31,420 nt of DNA from a bacterium (lineage in GTDB: Bacteria; Hydrothermota; Tepidihabitantia; Tepidihabitantales; Tepidihabitantaceae), in the NCBI GenBank assembly GCA_046485285.1, contig JAWOHE010000051.1, positions 1 to 31,420 of the forward strand. Reading direction: 5' to 3'. Below the pieces are notes generated by a model. It was not told where the DNA came from, made no database searches, and saw nothing but the letters and a program-made list of their open reading frames with translations. Shown here in pieces: positions 1 through 25,449 of the stretch. The position numbers and the translations under genes were made by a program. Position 1 is the stretch's first letter, and each line of letters opens with the position of its first letter.

Positions 1-1198
1 CTGGGCCAGCCGGCTGGAGCAGACCGACGGCGTGACGATCTGCCTCCTGGGCGCTGACCTTGCCCAACTCGAAGTCGCCCGCGAGATGATACGGCACGTC
101 CAGGAGCAGCGCCGGGTGCTGGCGGCAAGCGCAAAGGCGCTCAGGGAATCCGAGGCAAAGACCGCTAATCTCATCCGGTTCACCGCCAGGAATGCCTTGA
201 CCGCCGGCCGGTTGGAGCGGCAGGTGGGGCGGCTCCGCGGGGAACTGGAAGGGCAATTCCGAATGGTCGGCGACTCGCGGGCAATTCAGCACGTGCGGGA
301 CCTCATCGACCGCGTCGCCCCGACTGCCGCCAGCGTCCTCATCACCGGTGAGAGCGGCGCGGGCAAGGAGCTGGTGGCCCGGGCAGTGCACCTGCGGAGC
401 CCGCGCGCCGGCGAGGCCTTCGTCGCACTGAACTGCGCGGCGATTCCCGGGGAGCTTATCGAGAGCGAGCTTTTCGGCCACGAAAAAGGCGCGTTCACCG
501 GCGCGGAATCGGCCCGGATGGGCAAGCTCCAGGAGGCCGATGGCGGGACCCTGTTCCTGGACGAGATCGGTGACCTCAGCCTGTCGGCGCAGGCGAAGCT
601 GCTGCGCTTCATGAACGATTCCGAGATCCATCGCGTCGGCGGCAACGCCGTCATCCACCTCGACGTCAGGGTCGTCGCCGCGACCAACAAGAACCTCCCG
701 GAGCTGGTCCAGGAGGACCGCTACCGGAAGGACCTCTACCACCGCCTGAACGTCGTGACCATCAACGTTCCGCCGCTCCGCGAGCGGGCCGCGGACATCG
801 AACTCATCACCGCGTTCTTTCTTGACCGGCTCTGCGCAAACTACGGGCGGATCGTCAGTCTCACCCCCGAAAGCCTGCTCGTGCTGAAGGCGTACAGCTG
901 GCCCGGCAACGTCCGCGAACTGCGGAATCTCATCGAGCGCGTGGTCATCATGGCGGAGACGAACCCGGTCGAGGCCGAGGAACTGCGCTCGTTTCTGGGC
1001 GCCGAGGCCAAGGTCCCGACGGACGGGACCCTCAAGATTGCCATCGAGCGCGCGGAGCGCGAGGCGGTCGAGCGGGTGCTGGTGCAGACCGACGGCAACG
1101 TCACCGAGGCGGCCGCGATCCTGGGCGTCGTCAGGCCCAGCCTGTACCGGATAATGAAGCGCTACGGAATCGCGACTCAGACCCGGACCCACAACTAA
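1..1198 (+). CDS. Sigma-54-dependent transcriptional activator (NtrC/bEBP family AAA+ with Fis-type HTH), 5' end outside window
   Basis: Walker A GESGAGKE, ESELFGHEKGAFTGA loop, Walker B TLFLDEI, YRKDLYHRLNV, WPGNVREL and C-terminal HTH GNVTEAAAILGVVRPSLYRIMKRYG. The frame is open back to the window edge, so the GTG at 32 is probably not the real start. Confidence 0.95.
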   Translation, partial: WASRLEQTDGVTICLLGADLAQLEVAREMIRHVQEQRRVLAASAKALRESEAKTANLIRFTARNALTAGRLERQVGRLRGELEGQFRMVGDSRAIQHVRDLIDRVAPTAASVLITGESGAGKELVARAVHLRSPRAGEAFVALNCAAIPGELIESELFGHEKGAFTGAESARMGKLQEADGGTLFLDEIGDLSLSAQAKLLRFMNDSEIHRVGGNAVIHLDVRVVAATNKNLPELVQEDRYRKDLYHRLNVVTINVPPLRERAADIELITAFFLDRLCANYGRIVSLTPESLLVLKAYSWPGNVRELRNLIERVVIMAETNPVEAEELRSFLGAEAKVPTDGTLKIAIERAEREAVERVLVQTDGNVTEAAAILGVVRPSLYRIMKRYGIATQTRTHN

Positions 1199-3543: not shown

Positions 3544-3559
3544 TGGCACGCGATGTGCG
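3544..3559 (+). promoter_or_regulatory. Sigma-54 (-24/-12) promoter 2
   Basis: TGGCACGCGATGTGCG with GG-N10-GC spacing. Confidence 0.75.
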
Positions 3560-3569
3560 GGTACCCATA

Positions 3570-3736
3570 CCAAGGGTAGGAACCAGGATTTGCAGCGACA
3601 GCGCGCAGTGTAATCCCCCCGCTGCCTGGTGTCGCGCACGGCGGGATGATGGGCAGACAATCATCCGGACGCCCTCGAGGGGTCGGCGGGAGTCGGTGGC
3701 TCTGCCTCCTTGTCGACTTCATGCCGACCCCTCGGG
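3570..3736 (+). ncRNA. Putative structured RNA/leader, copy 1 (three hairpins, CUGCCUCC loop)
   Basis: Stems GCGACA/TGTCGC (3595/3635), GGATGAT/ATCATCC (3644/3666) and CTCGAGGGGTCGGC/GCCGACCCCTCGGG (3674/3736). Homologous to 4637-4799. Confidence 0.55.
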
Positions 3737-3786
3737 AATTCACACGAGGACCCGAGGACAGCCTACCCGACCCGGCGCGCAGAGCG

Positions 3787-3842
3787 CTGAATTCTGAACT
3801 ATGAACCTTGAACTGCGAGCCTTGAACCACGGACCACGGGCC
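3787..3842. repeat. Degenerate 7-bp tandem repeat (8 units)
   Basis: ctgaatt ctgaact atgaacc ttgaact gcgagcc ttgaacc acggacc acgggcc. Confidence 0.7.
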
Positions 3843-3857
3843 CGGCCGCAAGAGGAG

Positions 3858-4109
3858 ATGAAGATGCCGAATACTGCAAGTCGGACCAGAGACGAGGAAC
3901 GCCCCGGCAGCGATGTGGCCGGACAGATGGCCGCGCCCGCCGGCGCGCCGGGCCGGACAGCCGCGCTCCGCCGCCGCGCGTCACCGCAGTTGAATCAGAA
4001 CCCCGAGGGCGGAACCCCCGGTACGGCCCCGGCTGGCGGGTCGCGCTTGACGCGAGCGCCCGCGCGGCACTACTGGCTGGTTCCGGTCGACCGTGACCGC
4101 CTGCCGTGA
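3858..4109 (+). CDS. Small hypothetical protein (low complexity)
   Basis: AAGAGGAG RBS next to ATGs at 3858/3864, downstream of promoter 2; no recognisable domain. Confidence 0.35.
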   Translation: MKMPNTASRTRDEERPGSDVAGQMAAPAGAPGRTAALRRRASPQLNQNPEGGTPGTAPAGGSRLTRAPARHYWLVPVDRDRLP

Positions 4110-4443
4110 CGAGACCGGGACCACTCGGCAAGGGAAGCCGGCCTCGAGGGCGCGCCGGGTCCCCGACGCCTCGCCCGAGTCCGGGTTCCTCTCGCAGGGC
4201 GACCCGGCCGTGAAGTCCAGGGGCCGAAGGCGCACCGCAGGGAAGCAGGCGGGCGAGAGGAAGCTCAAGACCGCGGTCGAGCGCGCCGAGCGCGAGGTGG
4301 TCGACAGGGTGCTCAAGCGGGCCGATGGCAATGTTGCCGATGCGGCCGGGGAGTTGGGTATCCTGCGAACCAGCCTCTACCGCATCATGAGGCGTTTCGG
4401 GATTACACCTCAGTCGCGCCGCGGGGACGAGTCATCCAGGTGA
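4093..4443 (+). CDS. Stand-alone Fis-type (HTH_8) DNA-binding protein; start uncertain (alternative GTG at 4210)
   Basis: LKTAVERAEREVVDRVLKRADGNVADAAGELGILRTSLYRIMRRFGI matches the HTH of the 1-1198 activator at 31 of 47 positions (manual count); no AAA+ domain. Confidence 0.75.
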   Translation: MTACRDETGTTRQGKPASRARRVPDASPESGFLSQGDPAVKSRGRRRTAGKQAGERKLKTAVERAEREVVDRVLKRADGNVADAAGELGILRTSLYRIMRRFGITPQSRRGDESSR

Positions 4444-4476
4444 ACAGGCGTTGCACCGGCGTGAACCACCCGGGGG

Positions 4477-4556
4477 TGTCTCCTTGCGGGCACGACCTTT
4501 GCGCCGCGGCGCCGGGCGAGCCTGTTCGTCGGCCCCGGTGTCTCTCTGGGGAAACA
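4477..4556. promoter_or_regulatory. Putative upstream activator sites for promoter 3
   Basis: TGTCTCTCTGGGGAAACA (4539-4556) and a weaker TGTCTCCTTGCGGGCACG (4477-4494). Confidence 0.55.
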
Positions 4557-4610
4557 CGGGTTCGGCGTCGCCGCCAGCCTGTCCTGCAGAGCTCGCCGGG
4601 CGGCTCGGTC

Positions 4611-4626
4611 CGGCACGCTATGTGCA
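4611..4626 (+). promoter_or_regulatory. Sigma-54 (-24/-12) promoter 3
   Basis: CGGCACGCTATGTGCA with GG-N10-GC spacing; closely resembles promoter 2. Confidence 0.75.
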
Positions 4627-4636
4627 TACTACAAGG

Positions 4637-4799
4637 TTAGTGGAAGATGGACGCGACCGGGGAACGACAGCACAACCCACGTGCCACGACGTGCGCTGTC
4701 GCGCAGATGGATGATGGTGCGCAATCATCCATGGGTAACACGGGGTCGGCGGCAGTCGGACAAGCGCACCTGCCTCCCAACCGGCGGCATGCCGACCCC
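4637..4799 (+). ncRNA. Putative structured RNA/leader, copy 2
   Basis: Stems CGACAGC/GCTGTCG (4665/4701), ATGGATGAT/ATCATCCAT (4707/4732) and GGGGTCGGC/GCCGACCCC (4742/4799); CTGCCTCC in the loop at 4770-4777. Confidence 0.55.
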
Positions 4800-4840: not shown

Positions 4841-5338
4841 ATGAAACGCACAGTACTGACCGCGTTCGTGATTGTCGGCCTCTGCACCGGGGTTGCCGAT
4901 GCCCGGCCGCAGGGCTTCGGCCTGGGCCTGATGGGCGGGAACCCTTCCGGGCTCAGCGCCAAGATCTGGACCAGCCGCAACGTCGCGCTCGACGCCGGGC
5001 TGGGATACTCAATGTGGTCCGGGCGGGCGCTGCACTTCCACGGCGACGTGCTCTGGCATACGAACAGCCTGCTCCAGTCGTCGGGCGATGGCTATCTGCC
5101 GCTCTACATCGGCGTCGGCGCCCGCGTCGGGATGTCGGCGGACGACTACCCGGACACGAGGATCGGCATCCGGGTCCCGTTCGGGCTCGAGTACGTGTTC
5201 GCCAGCGTCCCGGTCGGCCTGTTCGTGGAAGTGGTCCCGACATTCGACCTTGCCGGGGTTCCGCCCAGCAAGGGATTCTTCGGCCCGCAGGGGTCAGTCG
5301 GGTTCCGCTACTACTTCAGCGGGTCCGCGCGGGACTAG
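4841..5338 (+). CDS. Small outer-membrane beta-barrel protein (DUF3996-like)
   Basis: Signal peptide; amphipathic strands GFGLGLMGGNPSGLSAKIW, LYIGVGAR, IGIRVPFGLEY, LFVEVVP; terminal GFRYYF. Confidence 0.75.
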   Translation: MKRTVLTAFVIVGLCTGVADARPQGFGLGLMGGNPSGLSAKIWTSRNVALDAGLGYSMWSGRALHFHGDVLWHTNSLLQSSGDGYLPLYIGVGARVGMSADDYPDTRIGIRVPFGLEYVFASVPVGLFVEVVPTFDLAGVPPSKGFFGPQGSVGFRYYFSGSARD

Positions 5339-19288: not shown

Positions 19289-21055
19289 CTACTTCACGAC
19301 CGTGACCGGGACGGTCAGCGTTGTGCCGTCCGCGTCGGCGCGGACGAAGTAGACGCCCGGCGCGAGCCCGGTGGCGTCAAACCCGAGCGAGTGCCGCCCG
19401 GCCGCGCTCGAGCCCTCGAACACCGTTCTGACCGCGCGGCCGCCGCGGTCGTAAAGGCGCACTGCCAGGCGGGCCGGCCGGTTGAGGGTATACGTCAGCT
19501 GACCGCGGCCGGTGAGCGGGTTCGGCGCGACGCTGAGTATCCCGTCCGCCATCACCAGCCGGCGTTGCTCGGCGACGCCGGACCAGTCGGTGCGGTCGAA
19601 GTACGCCGAGAAGTTGCTGCGGCGCAGGTAGACAACGCCATAGGCACTGCCCAGGAACTCGATGGCCGGGCGGTTCCAGTACGGCTGGTGGTCGGACATG
19701 GCAACCGGAGTGGTCCAGGGCCCGGCATAGTCGCGCCAGGTGTAGCGCATCTCGCGGGTCGGCGTGTAGTGCCGGTAGATTATCGCCTGGCCGCCGCCCG
19801 CGCGCATCGCGACGTCCGGCGACTCCGAGCCGGTTGTTGTGTCGTTGCCGACATTGCCGTAGAACCAGGTGCTGCCCGGGTTGCCGCCCTGGTAGTTGGT
19901 GAAGTACTGCACCCAGAACAGGCTCCCGGGCTCGTAATCGAAGGCGCACAGGATTGTGTCGTGGTAGGCGCCGATCGAGGTGTACTCGCCCTGCTCGGCC
20001 GGGATGCTGCGCATAACCCGGAACCCAGGCCCGCGGCGGGCGGTGATGCGGACGTTGTCGAGGGTGTCGTAGTACGAAAGCCAGATGAACGAGCTTTCCG
20101 CGCCCGCGTTGAAGCAGGCGTCGAGCCCGCGGTCCGCGTTCGTCACCCCGGTCGAGATTATCGTGTCCCAGGTCGCGGCGGCCGCAGTAGACCAGATGTA
20201 CTTGATCGCGCCGCTGTGGAGCAGGGTGAAGCAGTAGATCCGGTCGTTGTAGGTGTCCTGGGACGAGACCAGCGATATCTCCTTGACCGAGTCGCCCGCC
20301 GCCGCGGTGTAGATGGTCAGCCAGGCCGAGCCGTTGCCGAATGCGGTGTCAGCACCGGTGCTGGCCCGGAACCGGCGGACGCGCGCCTGGCGGTTCGGGG
20401 AGACCCCGCCATCATACACGACATAGCAGTAGTTGGTCAGCACCGCGGCGCTGACCGCATACATGTTGAGAGATGTGAACCAAGTGTAGGTCTCGGTCCA
20501 ACTGACCCCGCCGTTGGTGGACAGGTTGACCGACCAGTAATTGCCCGTGCCCTCCCGGTACGCAAGAACGGCGAAGAGGTTGCCCGAGGCCCGGTGGATG
20601 TCGAGCTCAACAAGCGAAATCGTGTCGCGGTTGCCGATGCGGACATCGTCGCCCCAGAGACAGGTCTGGTACGTCGGCACCGGCGTGCGCCAGGAGTTGC
20701 CGATCGTGACCGCGCACGGGTCGACCAAGCCGCCGAGCGCGTGGAACGCCGCACGTGCCTCATCGTACCGGCCCCGGTTCCAGAGGCCGGTGACCTCGGC
20801 CGCTGCCGCGCGGGCCGCCGGGCTCGCGTCGCCGGGCAATTCGAGTTCGATGCGGGAATTATCGCGCTCGGCCTGGTTCATCCGCTCGAGTGCGACCCAG
20901 GCCGGGAAGCGCTCGGTCTCGGGCCGGGGCTGGTCGCGGTCAGTCGGGCTCGCGACGCGCGGGCGCGAGTGGATGTCGCCCTGGGGTGCCGGGAGCTCCA
21001 AGGCGAGCGAGGCTGCCGCAATCGCCAGGACCGCGGCGATGACTACCTTCTTCAT
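19289..21055 (-). CDS. Secreted protein with BNR/propeller-like region and canonical T9SS type A sorting domain
   Basis: Signal peptide; STNGGVSW BNR-like motif; tail LSVAPNP...LYDRGGRAV...LAPGVYFVR...VTVVK; RBS AAAGGAGG. Confidence 0.8.
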   Translation of the reverse strand: MKKVVIAAVLAIAAASLALELPAPQGDIHSRPRVASPTDRDQPRPETERFPAWVALERMNQAERDNSRIELELPGDASPAARAAAAEVTGLWNRGRYDEARAAFHALGGLVDPCAVTIGNSWRTPVPTYQTCLWGDDVRIGNRDTISLVELDIHRASGNLFAVLAYREGTGNYWSVNLSTNGGVSWTETYTWFTSLNMYAVSAAVLTNYCYVVYDGGVSPNRQARVRRFRASTGADTAFGNGSAWLTIYTAAAGDSVKEISLVSSQDTYNDRIYCFTLLHSGAIKYIWSTAAAATWDTIISTGVTNADRGLDACFNAGAESSFIWLSYYDTLDNVRITARRGPGFRVMRSIPAEQGEYTSIGAYHDTILCAFDYEPGSLFWVQYFTNYQGGNPGSTWFYGNVGNDTTTGSESPDVAMRAGGGQAIIYRHYTPTREMRYTWRDYAGPWTTPVAMSDHQPYWNRPAIEFLGSAYGVVYLRRSNFSAYFDRTDWSGVAEQRRLVMADGILSVAPNPLTGRGQLTYTLNRPARLAVRLYDRGGRAVRTVFEGSSAAGRHSLGFDATGLAPGVYFVRADADGTTLTVPVTVVK

Positions 21056-23586: not shown

Positions 23587-25449
23587 CTACCTGGCCAGGA
23601 CCACCCGGGCGACGGCAGGCGCGCCGCGCCCGGGGCCCGAGGCCGAATGTACGAAATAGACGCCTGGCGACAGACGCGAAACGTCGTTCGGGCCGGGGGA
23701 GAGAGCCATCACCTTCCGGCCGGAGGCGTCGAGGAGGACGATTGCAGATTGCAGGTTGCAGATTGCAGAATGCAGATTGAGGGAGCCCCGGACGATGGTC
23801 GGGCCGGCAGCCGCCTCCGGCCCCCGGACCGCCGGCCGCTCGCGCGCCGCGGCCTGCGGCGCCCAGGGCGAGCCGGTGCGCTGTTTGTCGAACCGGAGCG
23901 TCGGCCAGGGCAGTTCGCCCGTGGCGCAGGCGGCATCGGTGTCCCAGATGAACCACCGCCCGTCGGACCCGGTCATCAGTATCTCGGTCAGGCCGTCGCC
24001 GTCCGCGTCCCAGAGCAGGGGCGTCTTGCAGAGCGGGATGTGGCCCTCGACGAAGCCCATGTTGCCCTGGTCGGGCAGGAAGTAGGTCGGGAAGTCCCGC
24101 TTCGGCCAGCCGGGCAGGCTCTCGCCCCCGGCACTGACGACGTAGAACGAGGAGTCGCAACCCGCGGTGAGAATCTCGAAGCCGGGCGTCGAATCGACGT
24201 TGCCGATGCCGGGCGCGTGCCAGACCGCGTTGCGGGTCTCGAACGGGAAGCCGGGCACCGGGCGGCCGTCGGCCCCGAAGACGTGGATGTGACCGCCCCA
24301 GTCGGCGCCGGACGCGACGAGGCCGAAACTGCCGACGACGATCTCGAGCCGCTCGTCGCCGGCGAGGTCGGCGACCGACGGGTGCGAGAAGGACTTGGTG
24401 TATAAGCCGGAGACGTAGCCGGCATCCTCGGTCAGGTCGACCGGGAAACCGTCGAGCCGGGTGCCGGAGGTGTCGAAGACGTCGAGGTACCCGGTCCGGC
24501 GCAGGATGATGATCTCCGGCGCGCCGTCGAGGTCGATGTCGGCGACCACCGGTGAGGCGTAGTCGGTCGACTGGGCTGAGATCGCTCCCTGGGTCTGCCA
24601 CTCGCGCCGGATACTGCCGTCCGAGTTGAGGATGAACAGCCGGCGCTCGAGCAGGGGCCAGGGGCTGTAACGGCCGTGGAGATTGACGTGGCAGATGATT
24701 TCCCTGAGGCCGTCGCCGTCAAGGTCGGCGACCGCCGGGCCGGTCCAGCAGCCGTGCTGGTTGATGGTGTCGCCGGGGTAGAACTCGGTGCGCCAGAGCG
24801 AATCGCCGCGAAGGTTGAGCGCGTAACAGCTCGCGCCGCCCTTGCGCGCGGAGTTGAAATCGGTCGTCATGAAGACGAGTTCGAGGGTGTCGTCGCCATT
24901 GATGTCCGCGGCCGCGACCTCGGCGTAGATGTCGTTGTAGGGGTCCTCGGGCCAGCCCGGGCAGATGAACGGCCAGCCCGGCTTCGTCCGGCCGCTCATC
25001 GCGTCGAGGACATAGACCCGGCACTTGTAGTTGGGCGGGTCGGGGAAGAACGTCTCGCACATCGGGATGATGAGGTCGTCGTAGCCGTCGAGGTCGAGGT
25101 CGGCGACGGTGACCGAGGCCGGCTCGGGGTTGCCCATGTAGCCCCAGGTCTGGGCCCACTTGCGGCTCAGGTCGTGGTCGAAGACGGCGACGCGGGTGAT
25201 GCGGGTATTCTGCTGGCCGACATCGGAGAGCCGGCAGACGTACTCGAGTTCCGGGTCGTCGTCGAAATTGCCGGCGTTGACCGCCAGACCCCAGGTCCCC
25301 TCGAGCTCGATGACGGTGTCATCGAGCGGGCGGCCGGCATCAAACACGGCCGTCCGGATACCGCCGGCGCCGATCTCGGTCAAGGTGACCGTCCGGCCGG
25401 GCGCCGCGAGTCCGGCCAGCAAGGCAAGCGCGAACATGGTCAGCGACAT
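23587..25449 (-). CDS. FG-GAP/VCBS-like repeat protein with short T9SS-type C-terminal domain
   Basis: ADLDLDGYDD, ADINGDDTLE, ADLDGDGLRE and similar; start MSLTM at 25449 after GAGGAGG; same tail cassette. Confidence 0.85.
   Translation of the reverse strand: MSLTMFALALLAGLAAPGRTVTLTEIGAGGIRTAVFDAGRPLDDTVIELEGTWGLAVNAGNFDDDPELEYVCRLSDVGQQNTRITRVAVFDHDLSRKWAQTWGYMGNPEPASVTVADLDLDGYDDLIIPMCETFFPDPPNYKCRVYVLDAMSGRTKPGWPFICPGWPEDPYNDIYAEVAAADINGDDTLELVFMTTDFNSARKGGASCYALNLRGDSLWRTEFYPGDTINQHGCWTGPAVADLDGDGLREIICHVNLHGRYSPWPLLERRLFILNSDGSIRREWQTQGAISAQSTDYASPVVADIDLDGAPEIIILRRTGYLDVFDTSGTRLDGFPVDLTEDAGYVSGLYTKSFSHPSVADLAGDERLEIVVGSFGLVASGADWGGHIHVFGADGRPVPGFPFETRNAVWHAPGIGNVDSTPGFEILTAGCDSSFYVVSAGGESLPGWPKRDFPTYFLPDQGNMGFVEGHIPLCKTPLLWDADGDGLTEILMTGSDGRWFIWDTDAACATGELPWPTLRFDKQRTGSPWAPQAAARERPAVRGPEAAAGPTIVRGSLNLHSAICNLQSAIVLLDASGRKVMALSPGPNDVSRLSPGVYFVHSASGPGRGAPAVARVVLAR

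Follow-up and report, generated by a model that had tools for sequence, protein, structure and literature searches.

A conserved, apparently undescribed three-helix RNA with an anti-Shine-Dalgarno-like loop downstream of sigma-54 promoters in WOR-3 bacteria

The window (the whole stretch of 31,420 nucleotides that was analysed) comes from a WOR-3 genome of 2.34 Mb and 69% GC, represented by an 88%-complete assembly in which rpoN is present. From the window start, the genes follow in the order sigma-54 enhancer-binding protein, Ig-like protein, CsbD, methyltransferase, RNA copy 1, an ORF of 81 amino acids (aa), a stand-alone Fis-type helix-turn-helix (HTH) protein, RNA copy 2, a 165-aa secreted protein, and then DUF5670, DUF883 and an OmpA-domain protein; CsbD, DUF883 and DUF5670 are presumably general-stress genes. 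The features relevant to the two RNA copies, with their helices P1, P2 and P3, are as follows.

32..1198, plus strand: gene for a sigma-54 enhancer-binding protein (domain match)
1391: third sigma-54 promoter, following the activator gene
2357-2536: CsbD gene, following the activator gene
3544..3559, plus strand: sigma-54 (-24/-12) promoter of copy 1, consensus match, conserved spacing to P1
3570..3734, plus strand: RNA copy 1, purine-rich 5' tail, P1 3591-3638, P2 3644-3666, P3 3676-3734
3704..3709, plus strand: GCCUCC in the P3 loop of copy 1, for the most part paired by prediction
3788..3829, plus strand: TGAAC-type heptamer array in the spacer 3' of copy 1, a dispersed repeat outside the RNA
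3864..4109, plus strand: small ORF of 81 aa, first gene 3' of copy 1, 132 nt past P3
4093..4443, plus strand: stand-alone Fis-type HTH ORF (HTH_8), start uncertain
4611..4626, plus strand: sigma-54 (-24/-12) promoter of copy 2, consensus match, conserved spacing to P1
4637..4799, plus strand: RNA copy 2, purine-rich 5' tail, P1 4665-4701, P2 4709-4730, P3 4742-4799
4772..4777, plus strand: GCCUCC in copy 2, half open by prediction
4841..5338, plus strand: 165-aa protein with a signal-peptide-like start, first gene 3' of copy 2, 41 nt past P3
25451..25458, minus strand: GGAGGCAG in the ribosome-binding site (RBS) of an FG-GAP gene, complement of CTGCCTCC, 1 nt before the ATG at 25449

The enhancer-binding protein is, from the position of its gene, the likely activator of the RNA promoters. 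Its C-terminus is 63% identical over 52 aa to the stand-alone HTH protein, which might compete with the activator for its binding sites; a stand-alone HTH gene was also found directly 5' of the RNA promoter at most loci of group 1. The 81-aa ORF gave no family in a Pfam search and ends in a conserved RHxWLVP-type motif. Small proteins of this type (about 60-80 aa, with a variable middle, unannotated) occur as several paralogues per locus, often downstream of sigma-54 promoters, and the corresponding profile matched in 12 of the 44 family genomes, three of these weakly. The 165-aa protein had no Pfam match and is putatively an outer-membrane beta-barrel; DUF5670, DUF883 and OmpA-domain genes follow it. 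TGAAC-type heptamer arrays of at least four units number 28 in the genome, on 18 contigs.

Transcription of the two copies probably starts near 3570 and 4637, respectively. Copy 1, whose P1 has a C-rich loop of 9 nt, folded more stably than shuffled sequence over its whole region (z -3.83), in P3 (z -5.89) and in P1 (z -3.42), while for copy 2 the whole-region z was only -1.14, with -3.25 for P3 and -1.91 for P1. Covariance model R1, in whose training set both copies were included, scored them at 107 and 118 bits. The 5' tails of all copies (3570-3590 and 4637-4660 in the window) are purine-rich, Shine-Dalgarno (SD)-like and single-stranded before P1, and an ATG often follows the tail, opening no conserved frame.

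Loop-blind patterns retrieved four real copies among 132 genomes of the WOR-3 class and at least seven from metagenomes, where 113 of the 120 stretches listed were chance matches; a first covariance model matched 10 of the 132 genomes, all in the organism's own family. The close set comprised 22 distinct aligned copies (mean pairwise identity 72%, about seven clusters). Nine distant copies came in addition from a second model together with a P3 pattern: one in G008, six linked to a KTSC-domain gene, and a pair in G128 C80, of which one combines a group-1 P1 with a group-3 P3. These make a total of 31 copies in view. Outside that total stand L068 (cut, near L109, with GCCUCC), L205 (cut 5' of the loop) and L254, a lone GCCUCC hairpin with no promoter in view; in the last (1333-1456, G123), which precedes an ORF of the RHxWLVP type, GCCUCC forms the 3' end of the 12-nt loop of a single long hairpin. 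Pattern matches in G022, G127 and G000:C90, inside coding sequence and lacking a promoter, were dropped, as were those in L038-L042. The RNA was thus present in 11 of the 132 class genomes, all within one family (11 of its 44 genomes), and on metagenome contigs, with up to five copies per genome in G113, where they are near-identical, and six in G128. Model R2, used with stricter filters, found no copies in a sample of 150 further genomes of the phylum, and viral contigs gave none. Neither 21 more distant beta-barrel-like paralogue loci nor the Desulfosarcina and Mesorhizobium loci had the RNA nearby, and a BLAST-type search of 41 relatives yielded only two weak matches, neither confirmed by covariance model. 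The search range was WOR-3 genomes, metagenome stretches and viral contigs, so that absence outside WOR-3 is little tested. One locus, on the minus strand of L203 (1490-1716) in the single-contig genome G008, holds the RNA and a small ORF alone, divergent from sensor-kinase genes and without the beta-barrel operon; its loop reads ACCACC.

The structure was supported by covariation among the 22 close copies: both sides changed in 14 of the 38 pairs, compensatory changes were found in all helices, and 95.7% of 832 alignment cells could pair, a level matched by none of 500 shuffles and well above the 36-48% obtained with slid alignments. These figures overstate independence, as the alignment was fitted to the model and the copies form few clusters. 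The three helices are dissimilar to one another, and 11 of the 38 pairs never vary (7 of 17 in P3); this conserved primary sequence of the stems, above all P3, suggests contact with a protein or ligand. Rfam gave no match at the gathering score (best E 2.4, to an unrelated family), and no paper on a WOR-3 RNA was found in literature searches at the level of titles and abstract openings. The three-helix RNA is a real, conserved and apparently undescribed family.

The first-pass annotation had placed CTGCCTCC in the apical loop of the third stem of both copies, as a conserved anti-SD-like 8-mer. The coordinates (3702-3709 and 4770-4777) were correct, and both sites lie in the third helix of the duplicated element. 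The bare count of CTGCCTCC is no higher than chance: the window holds four matches where 2.05 are expected, a number reached in 18 of 100 shuffles, the fourth (40-47) lies inside a coding region, and 93 occur genome-wide. The apical position held for the alignment consensus, in which the motif is unpaired, but only in part for single-sequence folding of either copy, where GGUGGC, on the opposite side of the loop, paired with GCC and CC of copy 1, and GC of the copy 2 motif was paired. The mean unpaired probability of GCCUCC was 0.30 and 0.44 in copies 1 and 2, respectively, with an opening cost of 3.1-3.2 kcal/mol, placing the window's copies among the least accessible of those scored. Conservation likewise extended to the hexamer rather than to the 8-mer, GCCUCC being kept in 19 of the 22 close homologues and CUGCCUCC in only three. 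This was the comparison across homologues by which the annotation had proposed to judge its own claim, and it upheld a conserved core within adjacent bases and a loop length that vary: the P3 loop of the close copies measures 15-21 nt, with GCCUCC at its 3' side except for one GCAUCC and two GCUCCC.

Over all 31 copies, GCCUCC lay in a predicted loop in 25. Five of the nine distant copies carry it, and one carries GCCCCC, in the 9-nt loop of a P1 sub-hairpin; one other has GCCUCC in a fully open P3 loop, and the remaining two are without the motif. The sub-hairpin position is that of the KTSC-linked group (five of its six copies have GCCUCC there, and in G126 the stem shows a compensatory change), and the occurrence of the motif in a different hairpin in one paralogue group points to a movable seed. 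The six copies without a looped GCCUCC read GCAUCC, GCUCCC (twice), ACCACC, GCCCCC and ACCUUA, three or four of these breaking the anti-SD core. When 28 copies were scored, 18 of 24 GCCUCC sites had an unpaired probability above 0.5 (two of the 24 being paired P2 sites), and only about 8% of shuffled copies held GCCUCC anywhere. The 16S 3' end of the source genome, GAUCACCUCCUUUCU, identifies CCUCC as the true anti-SD core. The family thus has the conserved, unpaired, SD-complementary seed typical of a trans-acting anti-SD sRNA, weakly so in the window's copies. A second conserved C-rich single strand, GUUCCA(C), was seen in the P1 internal loop of most close copies and is absent from the window's two.

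It is improbable that the unit is just a stabilising 5' structure that recent duplications copied along with its promoter in a mobile stress cluster, its loop kept by descent only. The narrow host range, the near-identical copies of G113 and the overall identity of the close copies would all fit such a cassette, but GCCUCC stays in place while its loop neighbours and loop length vary freely, the motif recurs in another hairpin, and compensatory changes run across all helices.

The complement of the loop at the RBS of the FG-GAP gene, from which the annotation had drawn its example of a target, was confirmed, as was the use of GGAGG by other genes for secreted proteins in the window (starts at 21055, 21853 and 23572). 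Between 19289 and 29163, the minus strand encodes a run of secreted proteins whose C-terminal tails are nearly identical, as is usual for a sorting signal, and three proteins of this run have GGAGGC sites. Among 1,954 genes from a crude caller, with sites counted within 20 nt of the start, GGAGG occurred in 474, GGAGGC in 128 and GGAGGCAG in 25, and the last figure gives a probability of 0.28 for one match among the window's 25 genes. The match of FG-GAP to the loop is probably chance. That the RNA is a dedicated repressor of this gene is very improbable, despite the perfect 8-bp match (10 bp with copy 1) and a site ranking 34 and 114 of 1,935 by duplex energy (top 2% and 6%; ranked in one whole genome, with target accessibility ignored). 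The gene was not found in seven of the nine other RNA-bearing genomes checked, these seven being all those of genus g10 (74-97% complete); it is present in G003, G113 and G004. Its orthologues have GGAGGA in G003 (with RNA), a retained GGAGGC in G113 (with RNA) and GGAGGC in G004 (no RNA found), and these sites do not covary with the presence of the RNA. Genes encoding the tail motif of secreted proteins had GGAGGC more often than the rest (20 of 136 versus 108 of 1,818, p 4e-4), but this enrichment disappeared once the GGAGG preference was allowed for (p 0.11), and those genes are paralogues. FG-GAP mRNA as the specific target therefore failed every check run (gene presence, RBS covariation and duplex rank), and as a conserved RNA-target pair it is largely refuted. 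No conserved target of the RNA was found with one genome scanned whole. None of 99 distinct regulon sites had GGAGGC, a result that comes from only 10 gene families and is not significant; it fits self-avoidance.

A sigma-54 promoter lies 5' of the RNA in all 30 copies with upstream sequence in view, and the promoter-to-P1 spacing is 30-38 nt in all 21 such close copies, so that the RNA has the own promoter of a trans-acting sRNA. Its intrinsic terminator is lacking: only 3-6 U, and no U-tract, were found in the 12 nt 3' of P3 in close copies, and terminator calling after P3 gave none, nor did the KTSC group show any. A same-strand start codon follows P3 after 36-139 nt in 20 of the 22 close and at least seven of the nine distant copies, which is the position of a riboswitch or cis leader, 5' of a gene and in one transcription unit with it. 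This spacing and the missing U-tract make a cis-acting 5' leader a strong rival, one that we regard as a real if somewhat unlikely prospect. It would provide a second input on sigma-54 stress genes, with a protein or ligand on the conserved helices and C-rich loop, or the loop docking its own SD as a pseudoknot, and would set translation, Rho termination or mRNA lifetime of the downstream gene. The invariant stem sequence agrees with it, as do Rho, RNase E/G and RNase Y, all present, and the finding that all nine close orthologues of the 4841 gene (at least 68% identity) have the RNA upstream. Against a cis leader, duplexes between the loop and the copies' own ribosome-binding sites were weak (-3.8 to -12.7 kcal/mol, mostly 4-5 bp) and showed no covariation, and the 4841 gene's own site ranked 1,866 and 1,502 of 1,935. 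No expression platform (terminator, SD sequestration or switch) was found in pseudoknot-free folding, in which a P1/P3 switch was rejected at a cost of 15-34 kcal/mol, and the SD lies outside the structure, unlike that of a thermometer. The promoter and RNA together stand 5' of genes from at least four unrelated families that also have members without this unit, and an intact RNA persists in places where its neighbouring gene has decayed or is absent (the first copy of G113 C224, G113 C156, G130 C108 and G128 C151). The similarity of two G128 paralogues collapses directly 3' of P3.

Several other functions were considered and set aside. A leader peptide or coding function was rejected: an ATG is present in 14 of the 22 copies, with products of 19-66 aa or in-frame, the frames differ, and no upstream ORF is conserved. 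A DNA operator was rejected as well, the P2 spacer being variable and G-U pairs many, and pairing of the loop, whether to DUF5670 sites or to the purine-rich tail, showed no covariation by inspection. A c-di-GMP-I riboswitch, presumably alike at GCCUCC, was rejected, with no Rfam match. Beside the RNA copy in L190 (2093-5002, G113) lie genes whose translations resemble kaiC, kaiB and a PAS sensor.

Some bacterial RNAs, such as CrcZ and Csr-type RNAs, act as decoys that titrate a protein. A decoy made in bulk from sigma-54 promoters, titrating a protein that binds C-rich loops or helices with no mRNA pairing, is an unlikely explanation of the present family. It would account for several paralogues with a promoter each, for the presence of two or more C-rich single strands in each RNA (GUUCCA in P1, UCCCCC, CCACC), and for variants that remain C-rich even with SD pairing lost; one group, moreover, that with GCCUCC in P1, directly precedes a KTSC-domain gene of 73 aa (for example L252 2317-2538 in G129; also in G123, G126, G128 and G130). 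That linkage is limited to one group, however, such RNAs usually repeat one motif many times where here it occurs once, and the candidate proteins were not found: Hfq was detected in none of the 44 family genomes, and neither CsrA nor KhpB/Jag (Jag_N) was found in the 88%-complete own genome.

Orphan cis-regulatory motifs and riboswitch candidates are lineage-restricted structured RNAs 5' of genes with conserved stem sequence, and the WOR-3 RNA resembles them in all these respects; it differs from them in that no expression platform was found, the downstream genes are unrelated and Rfam gave no match. RsaE has a C-rich loop proposed to seed RBS pairing. The same is proposed for a UCCC loop of S. 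aureus RNAIII, according to the part of the source available (PMC4615179). RNAIII and RsaE have several UCCC loops, unlike the WOR-3 RNA, which has one loop of this kind, followed by UCCC in only some copies, and neither shows sequence or Rfam similarity to it. Closer in the loop itself, as described in the available parts of the respective papers, are NfeR1/alpha-r14, with three hairpins and an Hfq-independent anti-SD loop of CCUCC core (PMC10746234), and the alphaproteobacterial cuckoo RNAs (RSs0680/CcsR), which share that core and are defined by CCUCCUCCC in the loop of every hairpin (PMC4615179). The WOR-3 RNA has one GCCUCC per RNA, and its helices are dissimilar with conserved stems, unlike the two to four similar hairpins with variable stems reported for cuckoo RNAs and alpha-r14 in the same excerpts. 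It also lies 5' of a gene, without an Rfam match, and has a sigma-54 promoter, which the nfeR1 promoter region, as far as described there, does not contain. RSs0680a-d are, in the same partial source, paralogues that a stress promoter transcribes together with a small gene (PMC4615179). The organisation is rather that of Pxr in myxobacteria, described in the portion available as a triple stem-loop that has a sigma-54 promoter of its own and neighbours the gene of a sigma-54 activator, with paralogues having a promoter each and processed forms (PMC5568312). The likeness to Pxr (sigma-54 promoter, three helices, activator gene nearby) is one of organisation only, with no Rfam match; the pxr gene is given as 108 nt, as against 160-200 nt for the WOR-3 RNA, which has no U-tract and a leader-like position. 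PmaR of Agrobacterium, which in the accessible text has an accessible C-rich loop on a long stem that is not anti-SD and mostly activates its targets (PMC6234868), is alike in its C-rich loop and cautions that such loops need not repress at the SD. The WOR-3 RNA is not a cuckoo RNA, RNAIII or RsaE; by analogy with what these partial sources describe, it would work most like NfeR1 and the cuckoo RNAs and be organised like Pxr, as a member of neither.

The reading that we favour, though tentatively, is an anti-SD RNA that would need no Hfq, would be set free from the 5' part of stress transcripts made from sigma-54 promoters, and would act in trans. Each copy would be the first 160-200 nt of the sigma-54 transcript of a general-stress-type gene cluster, folding into three helices and presenting GCCUCC, with its CCUCC core, in a loop. 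When the enhancer-binding protein fires, the stable RNA would be left as a free species, its 3' end set by cleavage or Rho termination past P3 and trimming stopped by the GC-rich P3; the RNases and Rho named above would allow a free RNA to arise in this way. Independently of Hfq, the loop would then base-pair with many mRNAs at ribosome-binding sites of the type GGAGG(C) and lower their translation, as for NfeR1; the FG-GAP mRNA would count at most as one among some 128 equivalent candidates and not as a dedicated target. Hfq-independent anti-SD sRNAs are known, by the parts of the source available (PMC10746234). Direct support in this proposal exists for the fold, through covariation, and for the promoter, the conservation of the loop, the number of copies and the range of hosts. 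The trans-acting translational repressor put forward in the first-pass annotation thus remains plausible as regards its conserved anti-SD-core loop, and is weakened by the leader-like position and the absence of a terminator in most copies. The main argument for a trans role is the movable, open anti-SD seed; the main gaps are the absent terminator and the absent conserved target. An extension of this proposal, which we consider unlikely, is a broad device for reallocating translation, in which a multi-copy leader RNA would damp about 7% of mRNAs (those with GGAGGC) under stress and regulon genes would escape, with a seed movable between hairpins, no need for Hfq, and damped mRNAs rich in secreted proteins.

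The significance of these findings is limited by the narrow range of the RNA and the weak named target. They add an RNA family that is both new and well supported; it occurs in an uncultured phylum, in a sampled family of genomes without Hfq, and its natural variants (seed moved, seed lost, neighbour gene lost) make the choice between cis and trans action directly testable. If the RNA acts in cis, it would be a new orphan leader; if it reallocates translation broadly, it would give WOR-3 a regulatory RNA family, none having been found there in the literature searched. If it acts in trans, sigma-54 stress signalling would be joined to SD-selective control of translation through an RNA embedded in a leader.
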